A stretch of DNA of 64,000 bases from the NCBI RefSeq assembly GCF_035084215.1, contig NC_090340.1:15004001-15068000 (forward strand), given 5' to 3'. Origin of the DNA: Heptranchias perlo (lineage: Eukaryota). The translations under genes were made by a program, and so were the position numbers. The first letter of the stretch is position 1; each line of letters starts with the position of its first letter. The notes beneath the pieces were generated by a model, which worked only from the letters and a program-made list of their open reading frames with translations, ran no database searches and had not been told where the DNA came from. Shown one piece after another: positions 1,690-60,835 of this stretch.

Positions 1690-4075
1690 TTAAGATAGTT
1701 CACGGAAAACTCCTGGAAAATATCAACAAAAACATAAAATTCATATTTTAATGTGAAATATAATTGAGAACCGATAGTAAAACCTGAAGTTATATCATCC
1801 GCTGCACAAATATTCTCAGCCAAACCTTATTTGCCTTCAAATTCCTGTATTTGATGTAAAAGCAAGAGGTTTATCTTTGTTATCTGATTATATTCCATAT
1901 TGTGCTTAATATTAATCACTTTATTTTTTGTTCCCATCATCAAATGGTTTTATTCGTTATTATTATCTAGCTTTCCTACAACACAACGATTACCAAGAGC
2001 TCCGTTCAAATTATCGGCTCTCGCCTTTCTCCCAATGCAGTTACCGATCCTGACCACCATTTTCGGCGATTCCCCGTGAAGAGTTCTGAAATTAAGTCTC
2101 TGGCCAACTTGTGTCCCTCACCCCTCCATGGCACAGCGGTTTGGAGTTGAAACTGTCTCTTGCATTTCAACTAAGCGGTGCCCACAACCTGGCTGCAGTT
2201 CAGCCGGTTACACCGTTTTTGTAACAAACTGATTGTCGAGTCAGACAATAGTGAATAAATCACCGCACGTCGATCTCCTATACTATTCAGTGACATTCAG
2301 TAATACAAAGGCGAACTTAATTATGACTTAACCATGAAGGCAGTGTTATCTGATTTCAAGGAGCGCCGATTGTTCCAGGCAGTAATATTCTCTGCACTTC
2401 AAAACCAGAAATCCTCACGGAATCGGATTAAAATAGTTTTGATTGCCCGTATTTGCAACAAAAGTTTCCACTTTGCAACATGATAAATGGAATGTCCGGC
2501 GACACAAAATCACTTTCCAAACCATTTGGTTGTGGGTGCACAACTAGTTTGAGTGAAGTGCTCTGAGTCTCCGGCCACTAATGGCTATAGATCATTGCTG
2601 ATCGCTACAGTCAAACACTCTCGGTACGATCTAAAATTGAAAATCATGTTCGGCACCATACCGACTGTAGAAATCTCTTTGAAACCACTGATATGGAAAC
2701 TCAGTGAATATTTTAATTATTCATTATGATAAAATTTCATTAATTCAAAGCTGAAAAAGAAGGCGTAACGGGACCGAACCGTTGTGAAAAGCCGGTACGT
2801 TCATTCATTCATTCCCGCAAAGGGTTCAATTATGCAGAAAGATTGATATCATGGAGATATTTAATCATAATCATGTCAGAACAATTTGCCTATTTCCTAA
2901 AAGTATTTGTTCCGCTTACCCGCTTAATGGGTCATACAAATCGTGTTCAGAAAAACATATTTGACGCCAGCGGGGAAGGATTTCACCCTCGGGGAGGAAA
3001 TAGTTTTTCGGAAAAGAAAAGCGAGCGCGGTGTAAAACGGGCGGCCGATTCGCTATCGCTCGTTTCGCGGTATCGCCGAAGGCCAATTTCACTCCCGCCC
3101 GGCGGCGCGTGGCTGTTGCAAATTATTAAATAGGAGGAAAGAAAACTGTCCGTTTAGTTAAAAATGCATCTAAGTAATAACTGTTTATAGATTCAATATT
3201 ATTTGTAATGGGGGAAAATAACTTAATGAATCAGTGTGCTGGAAGTAACGCTCATTTAAGCATTTCTTTATTATAAAATGAAGATTGACAGCTTTAAATA
3301 TTAGGTACAGTGATCACAGTAGTCACCGGTCTTAACATTCGCACGTATGTAGCTATATTAACTATGGTTTCTGCACTTTATTTCTAGCGTATGTTGCTCT
3401 GTTCAATGTTTAACCAGTAGTCTGTAAACTGGTGAAGGCAATGAACTAGCCACATAACAAAACATATACTTGGTTCACATCCAGGAAACAAAGGCTGAGA
3501 CAGTTGATACGCTGCAATAGGTTTGAGCAAAGCTCAGTAAACTCCAAGACGTAAATTTGCAGAGGAAAGGACTGTGTACCATCAGCCGGAGCTTGTAAGC
3601 GGAACAGGCGGTCACAGATCACCAGTGTAGCATCAACGTTGTGGTCATAACGGAAAATATAAGGTTGGTTGACCCTTGTGTATTGTAACTAACGCTGTTT
3701 GCGTGTTATTCTGATGATTGTTTTCGGCAGCAATCCACAAACGGGCAAAACGACCAATTAACAATATTTCCAAAGATGGGTTCACAGACCAAACAAGGGA
3801 CCGACACGACTCTGGAAGTGTCAAGCTCCAAACAAACGGAGAAACCCAAAATAAATACAGAATAACATATTCCAATATTATATCATTGATCGTGGGTGTA
3901 ATTATTTGTTATTGCTTAATCGTTTGAGGAATTTTCATTTATTTTCTTGTAATAAAAATGAACTTTCCTTGCATATTTTTGATCAATATGCACTATTTAA
4001 CAGATGCGAAATCTTTGCAACGATACGCTAATTGTTTTGCTGTACCTCGATATTATCATGCATAATTTCAATAAA
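1690..4075 (+). pseudogene. Receptor copy A, 3' part: post-C1 intron, TM exon deleted, cytoplasmic exon 1 (2751-2794), frameshifted ITIM exon (3485-3520)
   Basis: Colinear with 12980-15982. AG|ctgaaaaagaa...aagccg|GT reads AEKEGVTGPNRCEKP. CAG|gaaaca... reads ETKAETVDTLQ*, with YAAI and TVYHQ left in the shifted frame. AATAAA at 4070-4075. Upstream exons are not in the window. Confidence 0.75.
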
Positions 4076-5012
4076 AATATATGATCTACGATTTCTCTCT
4101 GTTCACCATTAATGATGATTCTTCTTCGCGAGTAAAACCGTGAAACCTGGGTTTTGACCGATGTGTTTCCTTACTGTATTCTGCCTTCCAGTCCAGGCGA
4201 TTCTCCTGATGTGGAAGGCAGGACGCTCCAGTCTATTGACTCGTCCATAAACCCACTGAACCCAGTTTGCAGTTGATGGAGCATGAGATGCCTTTCTCTG
4301 AACTCTGAATGAATATTCATTCCTATCCGAAACGATGCGCCCGGACAGTACCAGTTCACTTCTAAAGGTCCTAAGTAGTGAGAAAAGCCCGACGGAGCTG
4401 AATGCATTTTTATTGGAGAAAAGACTAAATTTATAGGGATTCAGGTCTTTCAAGTGTCGAAAGACTTGGATAATGTGGCAAAAAGCGGGTTTTATGGTTT
4501 TAATACGCAACTGGAGGCTCTGACTTACCAAGCCTCAAGAAAGAGAATAGAGTTAAAATCATTTGCCTCTTTTACTGTGGATGTCTGATCAACTGAGGGA
4601 TAACAACAGTTTGAAAGGTTAAACTATCAGATATTTCACAAGTAGATCACTTGAATTACAGGACGAGAACGAGCTGGTTACTGGAAGAACAGCAGCCCAA
4701 CAGTTCCAGTGACTAAGCCCTTTACTCAGAATTTAAAGATAATACAAGACGAAGTGAATCAGTTGCATTTTATTTACCTTAACTGTCCTGGTTTGATGAC
4801 TGTGTCCATCAACATGCATTTCAGAGTCCTAGAATGTTACAGCGCGGGAACAGTTCATTGGGCTTCTTAAGTCTGTACATTTTTTCTATCCATATGAAAC
4901 ATTTAACTTGTCCTACTTTTCTTTTGGATTCGCACTATCTTTGATATCCGTATTTCAAGCAGCTAATTCCATTCTAAAAGAAATCCTGGACTGTGTTTGT
5001 GGCAGAGAACTC

Positions 5013-8000
5013 CATATTGGCATAGGGTAAATAAGATCAGAGAGATGAATGCGTGGCTCAAGGGTTGGAGTGGGAGAAGTGGGTTTCGATTCATGGGGTA
5101 CTGGCACCAGTACTGGGGAAAGAGAGAGTCGTTCCGTTGGGATGCACCACACCTGAACCATGCTGGGACCAGAGTTCTAGCGAATCGAATGACTAGAGAG
5201 GTAGATCGGGCTTTAAATTAAATAAGGCGGGGTGGGGGTAGGGTCCAGGTGGAGATAAATCTACAATGCTAAAGAGAAAAGACAAAGAAGCAGTGCAGGA
5301 AAGTGATTGCGGTAAGGGTAACCAGATTGTGTCAGGAAGGGACAGAGTGTACAAACAAAAGAGTGCATTAACAAATAGGTCCGGCTAAGAAAAAATGGTA
5401 ATAAGACAAGTAGGGCCATAGTGCAAAACAATGTTAAGATGTCTAAAAACGATAAAACGACAAATGTAAAGGCACTGTATCTGAATGCACGAAGCATTCG
5501 TAATAGGGTAGACGAATTAACAGCGCAAATAGTTGTAAACGGATATGATATAATTGCAATTTCACAGATATGGCTGCATGGTGACCAAGGCTGGCAGCTG
5601 AATATCCAAGGGTATTCGATGTTTAGGAAGGACAGGCAAAAAGGAAAAGGAGGTGGGGTGGCGTTGTTAGTAAAGGATGAAATCAGAGCCATAGTGAGAA
5701 AGGATATTGGCTCAGAAAAGCAAGATGTAGAATCCGTCTGGCTGGAGTTAAGAAGCACCAAGGGGCAGAAAACACTGGTGGGAGTTGTCTATAGGCCTCC
5801 AAACAGTACTGGTAATGTAGAGGATGGCATCAAACAGGAAATTAGAGATGCATGTAACAAGGGTACTACAGTAATCATGGGTGACTTTAATCTACATATA
5901 GACTGGCCAAATCAAATTAGCAATAATACTGTGGAGGATGAATTCCTCGAGTATGGACGAGATGGTTTTTTAGACCAGTACCTTGAGGAGCCAACCAGGG
6001 AACAGGCTATCCTAGATTGGGTATTGTGCAATGAGAAGGGGTTAATTAATAATCTTGTTTTGCAGGGTCCTTTAGGGAAGAGTGACAATAACATGATAGA
6101 ATTCTTCATTAAGATGGAAAGTGAAGTAGTCCAATCCGAAACTAGGGTCCTATATCTAAATAAAGGAAACTACGAAGGTATGAGGAATGAGTTGGCCATG
6201 ATAGATTTGGAAGCTTCATTAAAAGGCATGACAGTGGATAGGCAATCGCTAACATTTATGGAACAAATGCATGAATTGCAATAATTATACATTCATTTCG
6301 GGTGCAAAAACACAAAAGGAAAATCGGCCCAAACATGGCTAACAAAATAAATTAAGGATAGTATTCGATCCAAAGAGGAGTCATATAAAGTTGCAAGAAA
6401 AGTATCAAGCCTGAGGATCAGGAGCAGTTTAGAATTCAGCAAAAACGGACCAAGAGATTGATTAAGACCGGAAAAATAGAGTATGAGGAAGCAAAATAAA
6501 AGTGGACTGTAAAAGCTTCTACAAGTACGTAAAAAGAAAAAGATTAGTGAAGACAAACGTAGGCCCCAAACAATCAAAAACGGGAGATTTTATAATGGGT
6601 TACAAGGAAATGGCAGAACAATTAAACAGAATCTTTGGTTCTGTCTTCATGGAAGAGTATACAAATAACTTCCCAGAAATATTAGGGAACTAAAGGTCTA
6701 GTGAGAAGGAGGAATTAAAGAAAATTAGTATTCGTAAAAAATAGTGCTGGAGAAATAAATGGGACTGAAAACCAATAAATCCCCAGGGCCTGATAATCTG
6801 CATCCCAGAGTACTAAAAGAGGTAGCCATGGAAATAGTGGATGCATTGGTTGTCATCTTCCAAAATTCTATAGATTATGGAACAGTTCCTGCAGATTGGT
6901 AGGTGGCAAATTAACACCACTATTTAAAAAGGAGGGAGAGAGAAAACAGGGAACTACAGACTGGTTAGTGTAACATCAGTAGTAGGGAAAATGCTAGATT
7001 CTATTTCCAAAGAATGTGATAACAGGACACTTGGAAAATATCAACGGGATTAGACAAAGTCAACATTGATTTATGAAAGGGAAATCATGTTTGACAAAAC
7101 TACTGGAGTTTTTTGAGTACGTAAGTGGTAGAATAGATAAGGGAGAACCAGTGGATGTGGTTTATTTGGATTTTCAGAAGGCCTTTGATAAAGTCCCACG
7201 TAACAGGTTAGTGTGCAAAATTAAAGCACATGGGATTGGTGGTAATATACTGGCATGGATTGAAAATTGGTTAACAGACAGGAAACAGAGAGTAGGAATA
7301 AATGGGTCTCTTTTGGGTTGGCAGAATTCAGTGCTTGGGCCCCAGCTATTCACAATATATATCAATGATTTGGAAGAGGGAACTAAATGTAATATTTCCA
7401 AGTTTGCTGATGACACAAAACTAGGTGGGATCGTGAGTTGTGAGTGTGATGCAAAGAGGGTTCAAGGCGTTTTAGACAAGTTGAGTGAGTGGGCAAATAT
7501 ATGGCAGATGCAGTATAATGTGGATAAATGTGAAGTTATCCACTTCGGAAGGAAAAACAGAAAGCAGCGTATTATTTAAATGTAGATAGATTGGGAAATG
7601 TGATGTACAAAGGGACCTGGGTGTCCTTGTACACCAGTCACTGAAAGCAAACATGCAGGTGCAGCAAGCAGTTAGGAAGGCAAATGGTATGTTGGCCTTC
7701 ATTGCAAGAGGATTTGATTAGAGTATCAAGGATGTCTTACTACAGTTATACAGGGCCTTGGTGAGACTAAACCTGGATTATTGTGTGTAGTTTTGGTCTC
7801 CTTACCTAAGAAAGGATATACTTGCCATAGAGGGAGTGCAGCGAAGGTTCACCAGACTGATTCTTGGGATCGCAGGACTGTCGTATGAGGAGAGATTGGG
7901 TTGACTCAGCCTGTATTCACTCGAGTGCAGAAGAATGAGAGGGGATCTCATTGAAAGATATGAAATTCTGACAGGTCTAGACAGACTGGATGCAGGGAGG

Positions 8001-11194: not shown

Positions 11195-14100
11195 ATGTTG
11201 TCGAGTGTGGTGCTTATGTTCCTGCTCCTGTCTCTCCGGGGAATTATTTACACAGGTATCTTTTATTCTCCATCCCAGCTGTCGCAATGAAGAAATGCAC
11301 CTGAAGGTGTTACCACTTAAACTGAATGACATTTAGTTCGTCTGCTCTATATTCTTCTTTCTCTAATTTATTTCCATGTACAAATATTTTCGAAAGTGCC
11401 TGGTTCCACATAGCATATAAGTAACCAAATTTTTAATCTATTTTCTAACAGCTGCTGCACGTATTTCTCAAACCCCCGAACAAGTGATTGCATTAAGGGG
11501 GGAAAACATCACCTTCTACTGTGTAATCCCGCTCTCTCAGGACAACTCAGAAGTGCATTGGTGGAAACAGGGCGAGAAAGCATATTTGCAAACAACGGTC
11601 GATAACAGAAAACGATTTGGTGTCAAAAATAAAGGAGCCAGTTTCTTTGAGCTACGGAACGTGACCTTCCAAGACTCTGGAATCTATCAATGCACAGTGA
11701 TCCGTCAGGGAAGCGTTAGTGGAAATGGAACGGGCTCAAATCTAATTGTGTGCGGTAAGTGACTGGGGTGAGTGGGAACTTCCAAATGTATCCAATGTAA
11801 CAGTATAAAACATTTATATTAATACATTTACAGTCAAACTCAATGTTACTCCAATATCTCTGTACACAGCTGTTAATTACACGGCACGATATGGCGCTTC
11901 ATTTACTGAGTTGTGTGAAATTCCATCAATATTAACCAGAGTAAGTAATATATTACTGGATTCATCTCAACATGTAGTTTCCACATCAGACTTCTGATGA
12001 GGGAAGGTGCGGAACAAATTCGAAACATATAGATGACTGACTGAAGATCTTTCATATTAATGCGCCTCCCCCGCCATATACAGGGCTCTTAACCTATTTT
12101 AGAAGCTTTGTTTGTCCCTGTCGCTGTCAGTGGGGTTTAACGGTCACTCCTGAAATTAATGCTCACATACTGACAGGCTGGTTCGAATGGCGGATTTCAG
12201 ATAAGCTACAATTAACTGTTAATTATTGGATTTACTCAACACATAGAACCATGAACCAGAACTTTGCCGCCGCTTTCCCCTGCAATAAACGAATCATTCC
12301 CCAGAGATTGTGTTGCTGAAGCCTTCTGAGGTTGAGCGGAATGTAATTTCCCTGAGCCGATCCCATGCTCCTGCTGTGTGGGCTTCCCGATATCCACTAG
12401 GGCCCTCCTTTCAGTATCAGTAATATACAGATTACTCGTTTCTTTCTTGGGGAGACAGACAGACAGAGCTAGAGATCCTAACAGAGAAGGACAGAGGATG
12501 CCATTCTTCTCCCACATCTTCTGTTACCTATCTCCCCAGAAACCTGATTTTCCACATTTTCTGTCCACAGCTGCCCCAACTCCACTGAAGATTGTCTCCA
12601 GGACACCCGAGAGCAAACCATCTGCTTCTCTGACTCTTGTGTGTGAAACGGCTGAGTTTTACCCGGAGGATTTCACCCTCACTTGGTATAAAAATGGCGT
12701 CAAAACCACAACTGGGATAAATATGACTAAACGGCGGAACACTGAGGGTCTGTATGAAGTTTCCAGCACTTTGGAAGTGACTCAGCCGAAGCGGAATGGG
12801 TCTGTTTACACCTGTTTGGTAACTCATGTCGCCCTCCAGACTCCCGCCATTGCAACCTACACTGTCAGCAATTCCGACTCAGGTAAGGAGCCAACAGTCG
12901 AAGAAGCGAGGTCAGCTACTGTTAAACACTGAAAGGATATTTGATAGGGTTTGTTCATATTAATAATCAGGAAGGTGATTCACGGATAATTCACGGAAAA
13001 GTCATGAGAAATTTCAACAAAACATAAAATGCATATTTTAATGTAAAACATCATTGACAACGGGTAGTAAAAGCTCAAGTTATATCATCCGCCACACAAA
13101 CGTATTCAGTCAAACCTTATTAGCCTTCAAATTCCTTTATTTGATGTAAAGCAAATATAAGCAGAAGTTGAGTTTTGTTATCCGATTATATTTCATATTC
13201 TGCTTATTATTTATCACATTTTATTTATTTTTGTTTCGATGTTAAAATGGTTTTATTCGTTATTATTATCTAGCTTTCCTGCAACAGGGTGATTCCCAGG
13301 AGCTACATTTAAGTTGTCTGCTCTCGGGTTTCTCCCAATGCAGTTCCCGATCCTGACCCCCCTTTTCAGCTACTCCCAGTGAAGAGTTCTGAAATTAATT
13401 ATCTGACCAAATGAATCCCTCACCCTTCCATGGCACAACGGGTTGGAATGGATCTGCCTCATACATTTCATTTAAACGGTGCTCACAACCTGGCTGCAGT
13501 TCTGCCGGTTACACCGTTTTATTAAAAGCTATTTGCCTGGTCAGGCGACAGTGAATAAACCATCGCGCGTTGATCTCCTACTTTGCGATATTCTTACCTC
13601 AATAAATACAGTGCAGTGTAGATATGTGAATTGGGAGTTTTAACCGATTTCTGCAATTCGGCATTTTGTCCGGCAACGGTGAAACGATTGTCATCGAATT
13701 GCCCGCGATTTCATCCAACAATAAATAAAGAACATGAGAAAAGTCAAGGGTAAGAACAAACCATTCGGTCTAGGGAAACATCCCTCTCGTATTCTACCTC
13801 TTCTAAAACAGTGTTTCAATAGTCATAAATTCAGTACCCCTCCTCGAAGATAATTCCAAAAAGGTCTCATCCATTTCAGACATTTGAGAAATTCCTTCCA
13901 ACATTATATCTAAAAAAAGTAACATTTTTAATTTATTGCCGTTCTACACTGTGCAGTTGCTGAAAGCATCATTACTTTAACCAAAAAACGCTCTTGCGGC
14001 ACCTTTTTAGGAAACGCCCGCCATAATGTACAACTCAATATATATGCTCCTATTATTCTTGCAGTTCGTGATGGCATGTCTCCTTACTACTCGGGTTTTA

Positions 14101-14711
14101 GATATGCGATGTGCGGTGTGGCGTTACTAGTGCTTCTGGTCATCATCCGGTCGCACTGCCAATTGCAGGTTAATAAAGGTAAGTTCTACTGTAAGCGTTT
14201 GATTTTCATTCAAAACTTCAGGAAGCGGTGGGGAGAAGTAGTGAGAGTCTCCGAATAACACAAAGAAGGCAGTGTTATCTGATTTCAGGCAGCGTCCATT
14301 GTTCCAACAGTAACAGATTCTGCACTTTATAACGCAGAAATCCTCACAGAATCAGCTTAAAAATTGATCCGATTACCTCTAAATTTGCAACAACAATTTC
14401 CACTTTGCAGTGTGATAAATGAATTGTACCCTGACACATAATCACTTTCCAAACCAGTGGGTTGTGGGTCCCCAACAATGGAGCGGTGTGAGGCTCCGGC
14501 CGGCAATGGCCGTAGGTCATTGCTGATCGCTACCGGGACTCCGATTCAAATACTGTCGGTACAATCTGAAATTGAAAGTCATGTTCCGCTTCATACTGAC
14601 TCTGGAAAGGTCTATAAAATCACTAATGTGGAAACTCAGCAAATATTTCAATCGCTCCTTATAATTAAATTTCATTAATTCACAGGTAAAAACTGCACCG
14701 AACGGTCGTGA
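11195..14711 (+). CDS. Receptor copy B: intact VJ-C1-TM Ig-superfamily receptor (NKp30/SIRP/TCR-like architecture), 271 aa; exons 11195-11255, 11452-11754, 12571-12882, 14065-14178, 14686-14711
   Basis: All four introns are GT-AG and phase 1, and the 816-nt spliced ORF is open. It encodes signal peptide MLSSVVLMFLLLSLRGIIYT, V and C1 domains with canonical residues, a TM segment and tail RSHCQLQVNKGKNCTERS*. An in-frame upstream ATG at 11153 is an alternative start. Confidence 0.85.
11452..11754 (+). CDS. Copy B exon 2: V-set Ig domain with germline-joined J-like G strand
   Basis: ITFYC...VHWWKQ...LRNVTFQDSGIYQC...GNGTGSNLIV; acceptor ttttctaacAG, donor GTaagt. Confidence 0.92.
12571..12882 (+). 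CDS. Copy B exon 3: C1-set Ig domain
   Basis: LTLVCETAEFYPEDFTLTWYKNG...GLYEVSSTLEV...YTCLVTHVAL carries the C1-set FYP, W and YxCxVxH motifs; acceptor ctgtccacAG, donor GTaagg. Confidence 0.92.
14065..14178 (+). CDS. Copy B exon 4: transmembrane exon with arginine
   Basis: ttcttgcAG|...YYSGFRYAMCGVALLVLLVIIRSHC...K|GTaagt. It is 114 nt, the same length as the paralogous exon at 39388-39501. Confidence 0.85.
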
Positions 14712-15397
14712 AAGGCTGGTACGTTCATCCATTCATCCCCGAAAAGTGTTCAAATATGCAGAAAGATTACTATCATGGAGATATTTTTATCATAATCATG
14801 TCAGAACAGTTTGCGTAATTCCTAAAAGTATTTGGTTTGTTTCGCTTAATGGGTCACTCAAATCGTGTTCAGAAAAACATTTGATGCTGGCGGGGAGGGG
14901 TTTAACCCCTCGGGGCGAAATTGTTTTTCGGAAAAGAAAAGCGAGTGCAGTGTACAACGGGCGGCCGCTTCGCTATCGCCCGTTTCGCGCTACCGCCGAA
15001 GGCCAATTTCACCCTGTCTCCGGTGTGTTGCTCTTTTAAATTATTAATTGGCAGAAAAGAAAACTGTCAGTTTCGTTGAAAATGTGTCTAAGTAATTACA
15101 GTTTATAGAGTCAATATTATTTATAATTGTGGAAATTCTTAATATTGTGGAACAACCGCTCATTTAATCATTTATGTGGTGTATAATGAATATTGACGGG
15201 TTTAAATAATAAGTTATAGCGAGCACAGTACTCACCGGTCTTAACATTTGCACTTATGTGACAATATTAATTATGGTTTCTGCAGTTTATCTCTCGTCTA
15301 CATTGTTCTGTTCACTGTTTAACTAGTAGTCTGTAAATTGGTGAAAGCAGTGAACTAGCCACATAACAAATCATATACTTGTCCCTGGCCTATTTGG

Positions 15398-15500
15398 GAA
15401 GCAGAGGCTGGGATCCTTGATACGCTGCATTAGGGTTGAACAGAACTCATTAAACTCCAACACGTAAACTTGAATTGAAGAGGAATGTGTAAAATTAGGC
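15398..15500 (+). pseudogene. Dead ITIM/ITSM exon of copy B
   Basis: Homologous to 56883-57029. The acceptor reads TGG instead of CAG, a 1-nt deletion precedes tac gct gca tta (YAAL, 15421-15432), there is an internal TAA, and the second Tyr codon has become TAA. Confidence 0.8.
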
Positions 15501-15976
15501 GGGACTCGAAAGCGGATCAGACAGAGACAGATTACCAGCGTAACAACAATATTCATCGGATATCGGAAAATATAAGGCTGGCTGACTCTGGTCGTGTATC
15601 GAATCGAAAGCTGTTTCTCTGTTATTCTGTTGATTGTTTTCGGCAGCAGTCCACAAACTGGCAAAACGACCAATTAACAATATTTCCAAACACGGATTAC
15701 AGACCAAAAAAAGGGACCCACGTGACTCTAGGCTCCAAAAAAATGGGAAAATCTCAAAATAACAAATAAAACACAGATTAACATATTCCAGTATTATATC
15801 ATTCAAAAAGGTGTCATTGTTTGTTATTGCTTAAATGTTTGAGGAATTTTAATTGATTTACTTGTACTAAAAATGAACTTTCCTTCCAACTTTTGATCAA
15901 TCTGTCATGTTTTACAGATAAGAAAACTTTGCAATTATATACTTTTTTGTACCTAGTTATTATCATGCATAACTTC

Positions 15977-15982
15977 AATAAA
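15977..15982 (+). terminator. Candidate polyadenylation signal of copy B
   Basis: AATAAA conserved at the homologous position in copy A (4070-4075) and copy C (57694-57699). Confidence 0.5.
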
Positions 15983-18357
15983 AATAGATGTTCTACGATT
16001 TCTCTCTTATCAACCATTAGTGATCATTTTTCTTCACTAGTAAAACTGCAAAACCTGAGTTTTGATCTATGCGTTGCCTTGGTGTATTGTGACTTCCAGT
16101 ACAGGCGATTCTCCTGATGTGGAAGGCAGGACGCTCCAGTCTATGGACTCGTCCGTAAACCCACTGCACCCAGCTTGCAGCTGATGGAACATGAGTTACC
16201 TTTCTCTAATCTCTGAATGACTATCCACTTCGCCCAGACAATTCCAAGCGGCTCCCAAAGGAAATGCCCAGATTATTCTCATTATGCTCTATCTTCAAAA
16301 GGACAGAGATTCGAGAGAGTTCTGAGACAAGCAACAAGAATGAATCCGGGACCTGGCAGTTAAGTTGTGAGAAAAGCCCCACGGAGCCGGTCGCATTTTT
16401 ATTGGAGGTAATACCAAATTAAAAAGGATTCTGGCCTTTTAGAAATGTTGAAAGACGTGGCTGATGTAGATAAGCTCGCTGTATGACTTAACACGCAACA
16501 ACAGGTTCTGAATTATCAATTCCCAAAGAAGAGAATAGAATTACAACCATTTTTTGTGTGGTTGTTTGTTCAGCTGGAAGATAACTAATAGTTTGAATGG
16601 TTAAACTGTCATCTATTTGGAAGTAGATCACTTGAATTACAGGGTGAGAACTATCTGGTTACTGGAAGAATAGCAGCCCAACAGTTCCAGCGACTAAGCC
16701 TTCAACTCAGAATTTAAAGATAATACAAGACGTAGTGAATCGGTTGCATTTTATTTGGCCTAACTCTCTTTGTTTGATGACTCTGTGCATTAACAAGCGT
16801 TTTAGAGACCTAGAATGTTACAGCAGAGAAACAGTTCATTGGGCTTCTAAAGTCTGAACGTTTTTTCTCTCCACATGAACCAGTTAATTTGTCCTATTTT
16901 GCTTTTAAATTCTCACAATCTTTCATATCCCTCTTTTCAAGCAACTAATTCCATTCTAAAAGAAATCCTGCACTGGGCTTGTGGCAGAGAACTATATATC
17001 GCATTCTAACCAGCCTCCGTTTAGAGAGTATGTTACCTCTCCCTTTATTTTTTGAGATTATGTTAAATTTCTGGTCAGTCGCTACAGTTTACTGACCACT
17101 GGAAACAATATAACATTATTACCTTATCATAACGCGTCTTAGTGTTGAAAACCTCTTAAACATCTCAGCTCAAGTGAAAGATGTCCAAGCTTCTCAAATA
17201 ATAACAACCCCACATTCCTGGTAATTAAATTTTCAATTGTTTTTATACCTTTAGTTTTAGAAAAACTCTTCCACCAGCTGAACATTACCTCCTTGCTTTT
17301 GTATTTTATGCCACCAAATACTAAACCAGGACATTCCCTTTGCATTTTTATTTTGCAATAAACTTCTGCTGCCATCATTCGTTAAATTCGCTCTGCTGCT
17401 CTCCATTTAAGATCCTATAATTTAAGATGTATTTCCCATTCCTACCTCCAGAAATGTAATATTTCACGTTTCTCTCCATTCGCCATGGCCATCTACCTGC
17501 TCTTCGAACTAACTATCGATGTCGCCTGCAGGATTTCACAAGCTGCATCGGAATGTCCTTCCCTCCTCCCCATTGTTTGTCATCTGCAAATTTTAATGTT
17601 GCTCCCTCAATTCCCCAGTCAAGATAATTAATCTTTATAATAAATAAAAGCAGCCCAACACAGACCCCGGGGAACACCTCTCGGCACATCTTTCCACTCC
17701 GAGAAATATTCTTTTACCCTTATACTTTGTTTTCTGTCCTCCAATCATCACTCTATTCCCATTAGCCACTTTGTCCTTACTTTCACGTGCCATTGTCGTA
17801 TGTGGTACCTTTTCAAATACGTTCGGAAAATCCATGCAAATTACATCTGCGGCATTCTCCTTCTCTTATTCTCTTTGTTATTTGTTCAATTAATTCTTTA
17901 AATCAAGCGGGATCTGCTTTTTCTAAACTCGTGATTCCTGGACCTGATTAGTTCAGGTTTCTACCAGAATTTCGCCGTTTTATAACGTTTGTCATAGGTC
18001 CTGCAAATTGCAAGTAAATGTGCAACTGTTTACCTGTCATTATGTTGCAGGTTGCTTCGCATTGTTTTTTTCTCATCCAATAACAATTCGTTGGCTTCGA
18101 GGAAGAGATTAAGTCAACGTGCTGTAGATTATTTTGAAAACTAGTTAAGCGAAAGTGACACATTTATGTGCAGTGGTACAAAATTAACATTTGGACATTC
18201 TATCAATCATTTGTTCTGTGAAAATGTAAGATATTAACGGAAGTGTTGACTAGTCTGGATTTAGCTACACGAAATGTTTTGCTAAATATCGACACTAGCG
18301 AATCGTTTTCTCGAGCTAACATGAAGCGCGTGTTATTTAATCGCCCCATCAGTGTAA

Positions 18358-22744: not shown

Positions 22745-23032
22745 GAGCTCAACGCAAGCTCGAGGAACAGCATTTCATCTTTCCATTAGGCACTTAACAG
22801 CCTTCAGGCTTTAACATTCAGTTCAACAACTTTAGATCATAACCACCGCTCCCATTTGATCGGACGACATGTCCTGGTTACGGTTCTGTTGTTAGCATTT
22901 ACACTTCCTCTCGACAAATCGTTGTTTCTTCAGCTTTGTTTCTTTACTTGTCGCATTACAACCAGCTTTTTCCTTTCACCATCACTCTTTTTGTCATTTA
23001 ATCACTCCTGCCCTACACTCCATCACAGACCT
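22745..23032 (+). mobile_element. Penelope-like element remnant (continues at 25613-25730 after the ERV insertion)
   Basis: Translates as AQRKLEEQHFIFPLGT*QPSGFNIQFNNFR, resembling the C-terminus of the Penelope GIY-YIG endonuclease. The pyrimidine-rich 3' region resumes after the TSD. Confidence 0.7.
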
Positions 23033-25612
23033 TGTTAGCGTGGATTTTGGACTGTTGAATTAAAGGCAACGATGAAGTGACTATTGGGTACATGGCGGTG
23101 GTCTTTACCCTAAAACCACACTGAAATGTGCTTTGTGTAGATTAGACTAACCTTAATTAAAGGCTTAAATATAACGCTTGACTACTAATAAAATGGACAC
23201 TATTAAACAAAATGGATTCTATTAAACAAAGGGACACTATTAAATAAAATGGATTCTGTGACTGTGGGAAAGACAGTTAAAAGTGTTGAGTTTGTACATT
23301 CCAGAACTGGCTTACAGTCTGGGAATACAAAGGACATTTCACAACGAACTGATAAAACTATAGAACCAGACTGCATGAAACAAAGGCATGCTGTCTTAAG
23401 GTGATAATAGTTGTTCGGACTTAATTGGTTAATGCGTAAGCAGTCCGTTGTTGCTATGCGGACTTAATTGGTTAATGTGTGTAATCAAGATTTATGATGT
23501 AAAAGCTACTGAAAATCTGTATTTCAAAGGTATAAAAAAGCATGACAACCATTTTAAAGTTGAGAAGGTAGCTGCGTTCACTACGGAGTGTCCAGTCCTT
23601 CTCCCAAAGCTTTGTCCAATAAACTGCATGTTGAATCTTTAAGTCTGACTCCGAGTGGTGATTTTTTCCCACAACAATTGGCGTAGTCGGCAGGATCTCA
23701 CTACTGGTGAGCTGATCGGTTGGCCTCGATCAGCGAACTGGAGTCGAGATCATTGAACTGTGGGAGTCAGACTAAGCCAACAGTGCAGTTAACACAGGGG
23801 GGTAAGTTAAGAGAATTTATGGGACTGTTGGGTATAACTAAGAGCTGGTTGCTTGTGCTGATCGACTAAGGACAAGGAAGTGTCTCTCTTGTATCCTGCC
23901 TTAGACTGGCTGTTCAGAGGGGAGATCCCCCACGCGAAGGTCAGGATCTTGAAGTGGATGCAAAAACAGGGGCACTTGCGATTGTGAAGCACGAGTAACC
24001 AGAACCATCCGGTACCAAACTCTGTAGTGGCGAACAAACGCAGAGATTAGAGCATAAGTTAAAGCATAAGTTAATTTACGATGTGTATTGTCTGATCATA
24101 CAACCTAGAACCGAACCCCATGGGAGGAAACACATTATCAAACTGATAATTGTGGCCGTGAGTATATAGTTGCAACTGAAAGTAAAATCTGGAGTGGAGT
24201 TCGGGCTGGGATTTCAGAAAGTTTAGAAAGTTTGGGAGGGAAAAGTAAATCTGGTGTGACCGGCAGTGACCGGTGATTACGGCTGGCTGTACACCAGCAC
24301 ATACCGACAGTGATCGGTGATTAAGTACCGGCAAGTCCCGGGGCCAGGACCCGAAAGTTGAAAGAAAAGAAAATCCGGCGAGAAGCCGGGACCCGAAGGA
24401 AAGATATAGCGAGAGGCTGAGATATCAGAAAAGAAAATCCGGTGGTTAGACCGGGACACGAAAGGTTTGAGTGAAAAGAAAACCCGGTGGATAGACCTTG
24501 ACCCGAAGGATATAGCGAGAACAGAGCACGATAATAAAGTTAACAAGTGAACAACCTAGATGGGGACCTGCAGGTTCCCTTATCGAGAAGTATATGACAG
24601 ACAGACACTCATTGATTAAGCAGATGCAAAAGGATGGCTGGGATATTTCTCAGACCTTAGAACAACAGAGAAAGTGGATAGATGGGGAAAAGAAGGATAA
24701 AACAAAAAAGGCAGGAGTATTACTAGTCCACCAACAAGCTGGAACCTTAGGGAATTAGAAGGCACCTCCACTAGAAAGTGGAGCGAAGATAAGGATAAAA
24801 TTAGGGAATTAGAAACTAGGATAAGGGAATTAGAAAAAAGAATCAATTAAAATGTTTAAAAGACAGAGACCCGGAAAAGAAAGGGTGTACTGTCTCTTTA
24901 AAAAGCCTGTCCTGATTGTGAGTGTTTTTTCGGTGTTGTGGGCCACGCCCCTTCTTACTGCGTCTTACGTGTTTATGTATTTGTTTTGTCTTGTGTTTAA
25001 TTCTGAGATTGCTGAATTAAAATTGGAGTTATTGAGGTTAAGTGACCGATTAAATTCTGATTCTTATAAAATGTGAGCATGTCAAATGACTGGCTGTTCA
25101 GAGGGGAGATCCCCCACGCGAAGGTCAGGATCTTGAAGTGGATGCAAAAACAGGGGCACTTGTTATTGTGAAGCACGAGTAACCAGAACCATCCGGTACC
25201 AAACTCATGCTTTTTTATACCTTTGAAATACAGATTTTCAGTAGCTTTTACATCATAAATCTTGATTACACACATTAACCAATTAAGTCCGCATAGCAAC
25301 AACGGAAATGTCCTTTGTATTCCCAGACTGTAAGCCAGTTCTGGAATGTACAAACTCAACACTTTTAACTGTCTTTCCCACAGTCACAGAATCCATTTTA
25401 TTTAATAGTGTCCCTTTGTTTAATAGAATCCATTTTGTTTAATAGTGTCCATTTTATTAGTAGTCAAGCGTTATATTTAAGCCTTTAATTAAGGTTAGTC
25501 TAATCTACACAAAGCACATTTCAGTGTGGTTTTAGGGTAAAGACCACCGCCATGTACCCAATAGTCACTTCATCGTTGCCTTTAATTCAACAGTCCAAAA
25601 TCCACGCTAACA
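23033..25612 (+). mobile_element. ERV-derived element with a complete left LTR (23033-23676) and an inverted U3 right end (25206-25612)
   Basis: TG...CA ends; GACCT TSD at 23028-23032 and 25613-25617; TATA at 23531, AATAAA at 23618; PBS; gag-like coiled-coil fragment at ~24555-24850 (KIRELETRIRELEKR). Confidence 0.92.
23679..23696 (+). promoter_or_regulatory. Primer binding site, tRNA-Ser
   Basis: TGGCGTAGTCGGCAGGAT, 2 nt after the LTR end, is the complement of the vertebrate tRNA-Ser 3' end (ATCCTGCCGACTACGCCA). Confidence 0.9.
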
Positions 25613-25734
25613 GACCTTCTTCTTTGTTCTTATCTCACTCCGCCCCCTTTTTTCCTGGCAATACACTAACGTGTAAACTGTTAAATCTCTAACTTCTTCC
25701 ATTTCTGATGAAAGTTCATCATCCTGAAACCAAT

Positions 25735-25900
25735 GTGCACGCAACACGGTCTCACAAACAGAAAATTAATTGAATGATCAGCGTATTCACTGATAAATTC
25801 GGATGAATTGCTGACGAGGACACTTGGAGAACTGTGCGCTGTTCTTCAAAAATGCCGTGGGATCTTCTTCATCTACCTAAGCAGGCAGATGGATCCTTAG
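25735..25900 (-). mobile_element. Deu-domain SINE fragment
   Basis: ggagaactgtgcgctgttcttcaaaaatgccgtgggatcttcttcatctacctaagcaggcagatgg matches the copy at 38905-38985. Confidence 0.6.
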
Positions 25901-58831: not shown

Positions 58832-60835
58832 CATAAGAACATGAGAAATAGGAGCAGGAGTGGGCCACCCGGCCCCTCGAGACTTCTCCACCATTCAATT
58901 AAATCATGACACATATTCCACCTCAACTCCAATTTCCCGCCCGATCCCCACACCTCTTGATTCCCTTAGAATCCAAACATCTATCGATCTCAATCTTGAA
59001 TATACTAAACGACTGAGTGTCCACCGTCCCATGGGGAAGGGAATTCCAAATATTTACCACCCTCTGAGTGAAGAAACTCCTCCTCAACTCAGTCCTAAAT
59101 ATCCAACACCTTATCCTGATACTATGCACCCTAGTTCTGGACTCTCCAGCCAGGAGAAACATCTTTTCAGCCTCTACCCTGGCAATTCCTCTTAGAACCT
59201 TATATGCTTCAATGAGATTCCCTCTTATTCTCCTAAACTCCTGAGTATACAGGCCCATTCTACTCAATCTTTCCACATAGGACAACCCTGTTGTTGACCG
59301 GAGGTCACCGGTTACGGTTACTGGCTTAGTACAAAGAGGAGAAGTGTCAATTCTCTCTTAACTCTCAATTCGCTTTATTCACGCGGTTAGATCATATACA
59401 TACAGCTTATACATCTGGTTAGATATAGACATGCAGTTTGCACCAGGTTATAAAGTTTTATACCCAAACTAGGATCTAAACGCACACCCATTCGGTTTTC
59501 CTGACACAACCTGAGTGGTCACAGAATATAAAGGATAATACCCGAAAAGGAGAGCTGACGCTGGCCAGGCGTTCCGTTCTATCTCTCTCTCAATGTCGTC
59601 TCTACGTCCCTGACGTAGGTTCTTCCACTTCCACGATGGTTGGTCTCCGGAGCCTTCGCTCTCTCGCTTTCGAGGTTTCTCTGACACTCCCTGAGTGGTC
59701 ACAGAATATACGTCATCTCTACATCCCTGACGTAGGTTCTTTCGCTTCCTCGATGGTTGGTCTCTGGAGTCTTCGCTCTCTCTCTTTCGAGGTTTCTATG
59801 ACACTCCCTAAGTGGTCACATAATATACGTTGTCTCTATGTCCCTGACGTAGGTTCTTGCACTTCCGTGATGGTTGGTCTCCGGAGTCTTCGCTCTCTCT
59901 CTTTTGAGGTTGCTTTGACACTCCCTGAGTGGACACAGAATATATGTCGTCTCTATGTCCCTGACGTAGGTTCTTCCACTTCCGCGATGGTTGGTCTCCG
60001 GAGTCTTCGCTCTGGCTCCATGCCCCAGATTCTTCAATATTATTCCGAATCTTATCTCTTCAAGCTGTGCTGTCTCTCTCTTTTGTTGGTTTAGGCTTGC
60101 TCTCCTCATTGGCTCTGTCCCAAGGACTTAGGTAGCAATACCTCATTACCCCTTTTCTAAATAAGGACTTGTGTCTTATCACATCTCCTTTGTCTTTCAC
60201 ACAACTTAGTTAATTCAAACCGGTTCCAGCCAACACAGGCCAGCGACTGAACTCAGGTTACTTCAGTTCCAAATTTGCTCTTGCCTGTGTGTCAGCAGCT
60301 GATGTCTCAGGTTACTGCAGCCCCTGGCCAACACTGCCATCCCAGGAATCAATCTAGTGAACCTTCGTTGTACTGCCTCTAAGCCAAGTATATCCCTCCT
60401 CAGGGAAGGAGGCCAAAGCTACAAACTGTATTCCAGGTGTGGTCTCGCCAAAGCCATGTACAATTGCAACATGACTTCCTTACTCTTGTATTCCAATCCC
60501 CTTACAATTAAGGCCAACATACCACTTGCCTTCCTAATTGTTGACTAACTGCATGTTAACCTTCTGTGTTTCGTATACAAGGACACCCAAATCCCACTGA
60601 ACACCAACATTAAATAGTTTCTCACCATTTAAAAATATTCAGTTTTTCTATTCTTTCTACCAAAGTGAATAACCTCACATTTCCCCACATCGTGCTCCTT
60701 CTGCCACCTGCTTGCCCACTCACTTAACCTGTCCATATCACATTGCCGACTCTTCACGTCCTCCTGACAGTTTACTTTACCACCTAGCTTTGCATCATCA
60801 GCAAACTTGGATACATTACACTCGGTTCCTTCATC
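58832..60835 (-). mobile_element. CR1 LINE 3' part interrupted by a solo LTR
   Basis: MSYVERLSRMGLYTQEFRRIRGNLIE...FFTQRVVNIWNSLP; the sequence resumes at 60334. Confidence 0.9.
59292..60333 (-). mobile_element. Solo LTR, same family as 376-1122, with an internal 117-bp tandem repeat (~59595-60013)
   Basis: TGTTGACCGG...CTGGCCAACA; 4-bp TSD ctgt/ctgc (one mismatch); ccctgacgtagg at 59608, 59725, 59842 and 59959. Confidence 0.9.

Follow-up and report, generated by a model that had tools for sequence, protein, structure and literature searches.

ERV loci that carry an inverted partial LTR are already known. In the human locus HERV-K124 (4q32.1), a 968-bp 5' LTR and 1171 bp of internal sequence are followed by a 78-bp inverted LTR piece, a second internal stretch of 206 bp and a further 78-bp inverted LTR piece, an arrangement attributed there to LTR inversion and template switching, crediting Hughes and Coffin 2002 (PMC3625200); a passage of a second paper names the 4q32.1 locus without its structure (PMC3228705). 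Like HERV-K124, the insertion described here measures some 2.5 kb and consists of an entire 5' LTR, a truncated internal region, a short second internal piece and an inverted, truncated 3' LTR. HERV-K124 has two 78-bp inverted pieces and our element a single U3 arm of 408 nt with 105 nt deleted, and HERV-K124 belongs to another retrovirus lineage and host. The combination of a full 5' LTR, a short inner duplication and an inverted LTR piece in both suggests a recurrent retroviral accident. The work of Hughes and Coffin (2002, Genomics 80:453) reportedly concerned a HERV-K element with inverted LTR ends, which its title likens to a DNA transposon.

One-ended integrations of HIV and ASLV provide a second comparison. 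In these, the free end is truncated and is extended by copying a number of templates close by, on one viral strand or the other; short homology is usual and host DNA is duplicated, the duplications in aberrant HIV integrations being mostly much larger than 5 bp (PMC5041404). Our element works like an aberrant integration of this kind, with one normal end, another that is truncated and carries copies of nearby viral sequence, short homology and a host duplication. The HIV-1 and ASLV cases are somatic, induced by drugs or mutations and usually show far larger duplications, whereas the 5–8 nt found here mimic a normal TSD. Inversions occur in two HIV proviruses of PMC9278108, and no two-U3 case appears in the passages considered of PMC9278108 or PMC12657518. 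The literature that we searched held no mention of two-U3-end, inverted-U3 or U3-U3 elements, from which we do not claim their absence from print.

In lineage terms, our element shares TGT..ACA LTR ends and the deletion of copies that retain the leader and 5' gag with XtERV-S and ERV3/ERV4-type ERVs, in which a 5-nt duplication is typical (PMC8278194, PMC4299795). The duplication at this locus, the one insertion examined, is 5 nt and readable as 5–8 nt. According to the same sources, XtERV-S Gag lacks a zinc knuckle; the relatives of our Gag, on which the element has to be judged since it does not contain that part of Gag itself, have zf-CCHC (P0009 above the cut-off, P0006 below). Because these relatives have zinc knuckles and no reverse transcriptase is present, we do not file the element as class III. 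Its PBS, which we take to be of the tRNA-Ser type, would be a further likeness to XtERV-S. DIRS1-type retrotransposons and fold-back DNA transposons likewise have terminal repeats in inverted orientation and a duplicated piece inside. DIRS elements rely on a tyrosine recombinase and produce no TSD of this sort and, unlike DIRS1 and fold-back transposons, the element has a retroviral Gag, a PBS and a TG..CA LTR.

Anatomy of the insertion

The window, i.e. the whole 64,000-nt stretch of DNA analysed, is vertebrate DNA with many LINE reverse-transcriptase frames and two Ig C1-set exons; its repeats are of a type that would point to a shark or ray. Positions 23033 to 25612 are occupied by an ERV-derived insertion made up of a complete 5' LTR, PBS, leader, Gag N-terminus, direct leader copy and inverted U3 arm. 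The features of the insertion and its borders are the following.

22746..23027, forward: interrupted high-copy host repeat, left part (from contig tables)
23025..23031, no strand: host target 7-mer ACAGACC, identical to 25610–25616, candidate closing microhomology
23028..23032, no strand: left GACCT, copy of the 5-nt duplication
23033..23676, forward: complete 5' LTR, TG..CA, 4-nt terminal inverted repeat
23341..23445, forward: U3 segment absent from the right arm, 105-nt deletion with 2-nt microhomology
23531 (TATA) and 23618 (poly(A) signal), forward: LTR motifs, from which the U3/R/U5 borders were deduced
23679..23696, forward: PBS, 2 nt past the LTR end
23697..24539, forward: leader, with candidate splice donor 23802, candidate acceptor 23903-4 (crude scoring) and short tandem repeats
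24540..24841, forward: retroviral Gag N-terminus, frame change near 24755, cut off at ~24840
24830..25087, no strand: separate very high-copy repeat, not gag, joined to gag in other family copies too
25088..25206, forward: direct leader copy, equal to 23904–24022, 119 nt
25205..25612, reverse: 408-nt inverted arm of U3, reaching from its start to 14 nt beyond the TATA start, without R or U5
25613..25617, no strand: right GACCT, copy of the 5-nt duplication
25618..25740, forward: interrupted host repeat, right part (from contig tables)

A TG..CA LTR followed by a PBS, together with homology to retroviral Gag, marks the insertion as ERV-derived; the two direct LTRs and the paired U3 and U5 ends of a normal provirus are missing. 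No tRNA gene was found in the window. The two arms can be read directly against each other, and they match without a single mismatch over 308 nt (23033–23340 with 25305–25612) and 102 nt (23444–23545 with 25205–25306). The fold-back layout that a first-pass annotation had proposed from the letters of the window (5' LTR, PBS, leader, gag and inverted U3 arm) holds, as do the 105-bp deletion of 23341–23445 in the right arm, the end of that arm just past the TATA box and the position of a U3 start at either end of the element (23033 on the left, 25612 on the right). The second leader copy is likewise present in direct orientation, its start lying one base off that first description, with 25088 paired to 23904 and not 23905. 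It joins its neighbours with 0 nt of homology on the left and 2 nt on the right, so that the inner joins of the element, counting the U3 deletion, carry 0, 2 and 2 nt, and it is a templated insertion. The two leader copies differ at one adjacent mismatch pair (23979-80), a tandem 2-nt change.

Some variation within the family was visible in passing. The U3 contains 43-nt and 19-nt repeats (23416–23480 and 23190–23253), and contig joints from 23480 to 25306, with depths of 525 and 650 among the joints listed, suggest that family copies vary in U3 repeat number. Family contigs with leader deletions of 112 nt (23868–23981) and 168 nt (23832–24001) show that the leader is variable among copies. 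The element's best-scoring donor and a top-scoring acceptor outline a candidate short leader intron (23802–23904), a splice joint that did not occur among the 15 joints listed.

A library search with Gag gave 12 relatives, the best of them (P0001) 72% identical, and 11 of the 12 mapped back to 24540–24847. One relative (P0009) is a Gag-Pol with RVT_1, and the best PDB matches were to gammaretroviral reverse transcriptase. To the right of this fragment, 24830–25087 is not gag but a separate high-copy repeat, a point that the first-pass annotation had missed. Its crude contig depth relative to single copy was ~730x and ~950x, compared with ~250 for the LTR and 30–45 for gag. Its fusion to gag recurs elsewhere, in three contigs among those listed (records 10, 23 and 31), which implies that the parent was already a deleted, composite element. 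The depth of this repeat was also high in runs guessed to be RNA, and GC-box and TATA-like motifs can be seen by eye on its minus strand. Pfam gave 0 families for the element's two short ORFs, an atlas search with the Gag piece no informative match, and neither protein search nor PBS pattern found relatives of the element among viral contigs. Of two metagenome scans, one gave 0 matches and the other only L001, a 20-mer that matches by chance and shows no similarity beyond it.

Copy and depth estimates come from contigs mapped from four of the eight sequencing runs listed, all of one sample. Contig evidence is taken from the 32 pieces listed (7849 further pieces exist) and from 15 listed joints (with 15 further ones). 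The DNA runs contain 0.59–0.60 of the words, and contigs tend to lose rare variants of high-copy families. Runs X5–X8, the guessed RNA runs, yielded unstranded contigs that are uninformative on expression of this locus.

Target site and right joint

Both the GACCT on either side and the resumption of an interrupted repeat beyond the insertion, as first described, were confirmed. The copies lie at 23028–23032 and 25613–25617, and a given 5-mer such as this has a chance of ~8e-4 in the local composition. The flanks are a single repeat split by the insertion, since 8 of the 15 listed joints pass over the entire element, one of them by exactly 2585 nt, the length of the element plus 5. This host repeat may be Penelope-like, the frame at 22747–22839 resembling Penelope. 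A search of it for GIY-YIG or a hammerhead ribozyme gave 0 Rfam matches, 0 Pfam families and a fold z of -0.28.

The same data bear on whether the locus is genuine. A chimera arising in the library or the assembly, or a somatic insertion in the tissue that was sequenced, would agree with the fact that no element-specific junction is bridged by any of the 32 contig pieces listed, that the runs contain only 0.60 of the words, and that both DNA runs have a contig with the exact empty site, its depth being 0.88 that of the zero-difference contig for the right flank. This depth could reflect a sample without the insertion or a contig that is really a flank paralog; its short side has only 21 letters and right-flank paralogs of 88–91% exist, so it may be the latter. 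We think that the insertion is real, because a fold-back artefact would run on into inverted flank, whereas the element is followed by a direct duplication and the correct right flank. Assembly errors, moreover, do not typically comprise four inner joins together with a deletion and a tandem change, and we hold an artefact or somatic copy to be very unlikely. At one flank base (22921) the sole covering contig in each DNA run differs from the window letter; the runs may be from another individual, or the contigs from a paralog.

The letters shared around the two GACCT copies amount to nine and not five, eight of them ending at the TSD end and one following it. In front of the left GACCT the host has ACA, the same three letters in which the right arm ends, a match with a local chance of 0.014. 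The right joint can thus be taken for a 5-nt TSD next to an intact U3, or else for a duplication of 8 nt next to a U3 that lacks 3 nt. The match probably continues. One contig each from X5 and X6 runs past the U3 start into the same sequence, which in element sense is an A-rich stretch and a G-run, and which we read as a putative polypurine-tract (PPT)/U3 border. Both align through 25616, that is four bases into the apparent TSD. A 7-mer match between target and viral end has a chance of ~3e-5, and the additional 4 nt that would make 7 nt shared across the joint are probable, on the basis of two contigs of one sample and an aligner end point, where an aligner may run through a mismatch.

Integrase needs no homology, whereas polymerase switching and end joining do. 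The first-pass annotation had ascribed both joints to integrase, in the form of a one-off cDNA with two U3 ends inserted in one concerted step; such a cDNA could come from two PPT-primed plus strands or from fold-back by reverse transcriptase. The CA at both ends, the 5-nt direct duplication and the flank resuming in register are just what this account calls for, and concerted integration in the test tube routinely uses the same kind of end twice. It has, however, to treat as chance both the 3-nt match and the probable 7-nt one, which exceed chance homology between viral end and target. Because the right joint sits in microhomology that is certain for 3 nt and probable for 7 nt, we do not retain integrase as its maker, and consider concerted insertion of two U3 ends rather improbable. 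Closure of the right end by microhomology, either during a one-ended integration or in a later rearrangement, is fairly likely when the two are taken jointly. Microhomology joining can thus imitate a perfect TSD next to ends in CA, and caution is needed when integrase action is deduced from nothing but junctions.

Formation of the fold-back

The account that we prefer, at about an even chance, is that of a single, dead and recently formed ERV insertion, with its left joint made by integrase and its right one by template switching and microhomology closure. In this best model the fold-back would have been made while a one-ended integration was under way or shortly after a normal integration. 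Integrase would have joined the left U3 end to the host. Working inwards from the right flank, a DNA strand would have copied the target bases beside the cut and switched to the viral PPT/U3 border at the ~7-nt match; in copying U3 it would have passed over 105 nt at a 2-nt match before switching to the leader at another 2-nt match and jumping to 25087, with everything from 25088 to the normal 3' LTR being lost. Most likely this happened during a one-ended integration completed by host enzymes, and reverse transcriptase may have carried out some of the inner switches at an earlier stage. While the anatomy, the 3-nt match and the 0–2-nt inner joins are direct observations, we infer the order of the steps, the enzymes and the timing, and the standing given to each account is a weighing by judgement, not a computation.

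Several features agree with a one-ended event: one end is normal, the other is truncated and extended by templated viral pieces from either strand, and short homology is present at the aberrant virus-host joint. Against such an event, the duplication (5–8 nt) is not much longer than a normal TSD. The best model is disfavoured in part because the exact 5-nt duplication and the register of the U3 start become partly coincidence. Neither is a coincidence if the provirus integrated normally, with U3 and U5 ends and a true 5-bp TSD, and suffered a FoSTeS/MMBIR-type deletion-inversion-duplication later. In that case the 4-nt LTR terminal repeat would, together with four TSD bases, match the PPT/U3 border in inverted orientation over 8 nt, at a distance of one LTR length; a stalled fork would switch there before moving onward, and serial joins of 0–2 nt would be expected. 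But the ACA match of the host is then left as a 1.4% coincidence, and with the arms still identical over 408 nt, little time would have been available after insertion. We see such a later rearrangement as unlikely, though likelier than any other rival of the best model. The original view of the element as young, ERV-derived, built by template switching and most likely a one-off is supported.

The duplicated pieces carry some information on their source. At 23915, all contigs (12 of 12 in X1, 19 of 19 in X2) differ from the letter common to both leader copies, and at 25516 practically all of the depth in four of four runs differs from the letter common to both arms. Both duplicates were therefore most likely copied from the element's own lineage.

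Two co-packaged family members as the source of the arms were also considered and are disfavoured, as the duplicates share letters absent from the listed family contigs. The leader copy starts 1 nt before the candidate acceptor 23903-4, which has the tied-best pyrimidine tract among 199 AG sites, and a back-spliced RNA was considered as its source. This was rejected, because contigs that leave the reference at 25087 (7 in X1, 9 in X2, 3 in X6) continue with TCCAG and not with a GT donor, and because the copy includes the acceptor's G; these 25087 contigs may derive from the high-copy repeat and not from the ERV.

An alternative already raised at the outset is that the element belongs to a non-autonomous fold-back family, copied with its two U3 ends. 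The parent subfamily is indeed non-autonomous-like, given the fusion of gag to a foreign repeat elsewhere. Downstream of gag, however, the element has neither a copy of R nor a PPT before a sense U3, and for this reason ordinary reverse transcription could not copy it. Other copies leave the reference at 25087 in the same 7 X1, 9 X2 and 3 X6 contigs, and the letters common to the duplicates were not seen among the family contigs listed. Such a family is scarcely credible to us. Most likely the element arose once, through an accident of repair of the type reported before in human endogenous retroviruses. It may be a natural fossil of one-ended integration, a process known mostly from experiments with drugs or mutants. 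As a single dead locus with precedent, its interest is that of a clean example of a look-alike TSD.

Transcription and genomic setting

Promoters facing each other had been thought able to produce double-stranded RNA. Taking putative start sites from the TATA boxes, each U3 lies upstream of its own start and neither LTR-driven transcript would contain both arms, so a hairpin RNA from the element's own promoters is not supported. Overlapping convergent sense and antisense RNAs are possible, as is a hairpin formed through host read-through RNA, and the predicted sense RNA would carry ~400 nt antisense to the family U3. A stronger version, in which a germline two-U3 integrase insertion, now an allele, makes a sense RNA with ~400 nt of antisense or a read-through hairpin of 308 + 102 bp, seems to us highly improbable. 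If it were true, the ~400 nt of antisense would target the U3 at the RNA 3' ends of an LTR family of ~250 copies, and the locus would record how a small-RNA silencer of its own ERV family arose in a single step.

The ERV insertion lies between the two Ig C1-set exons, which are convergent (12546–12875, forward; 41011–40697, reverse) and share 43% protein identity, and the region is probably an Ig-superfamily gene cluster with old local duplications. An example of such a duplication is 2336–5017, which matches 14265–16999 at ~79%. Further along the window, a tandem array of ~117-nt units (59480–60094) keeps a frame of 204 codons open.
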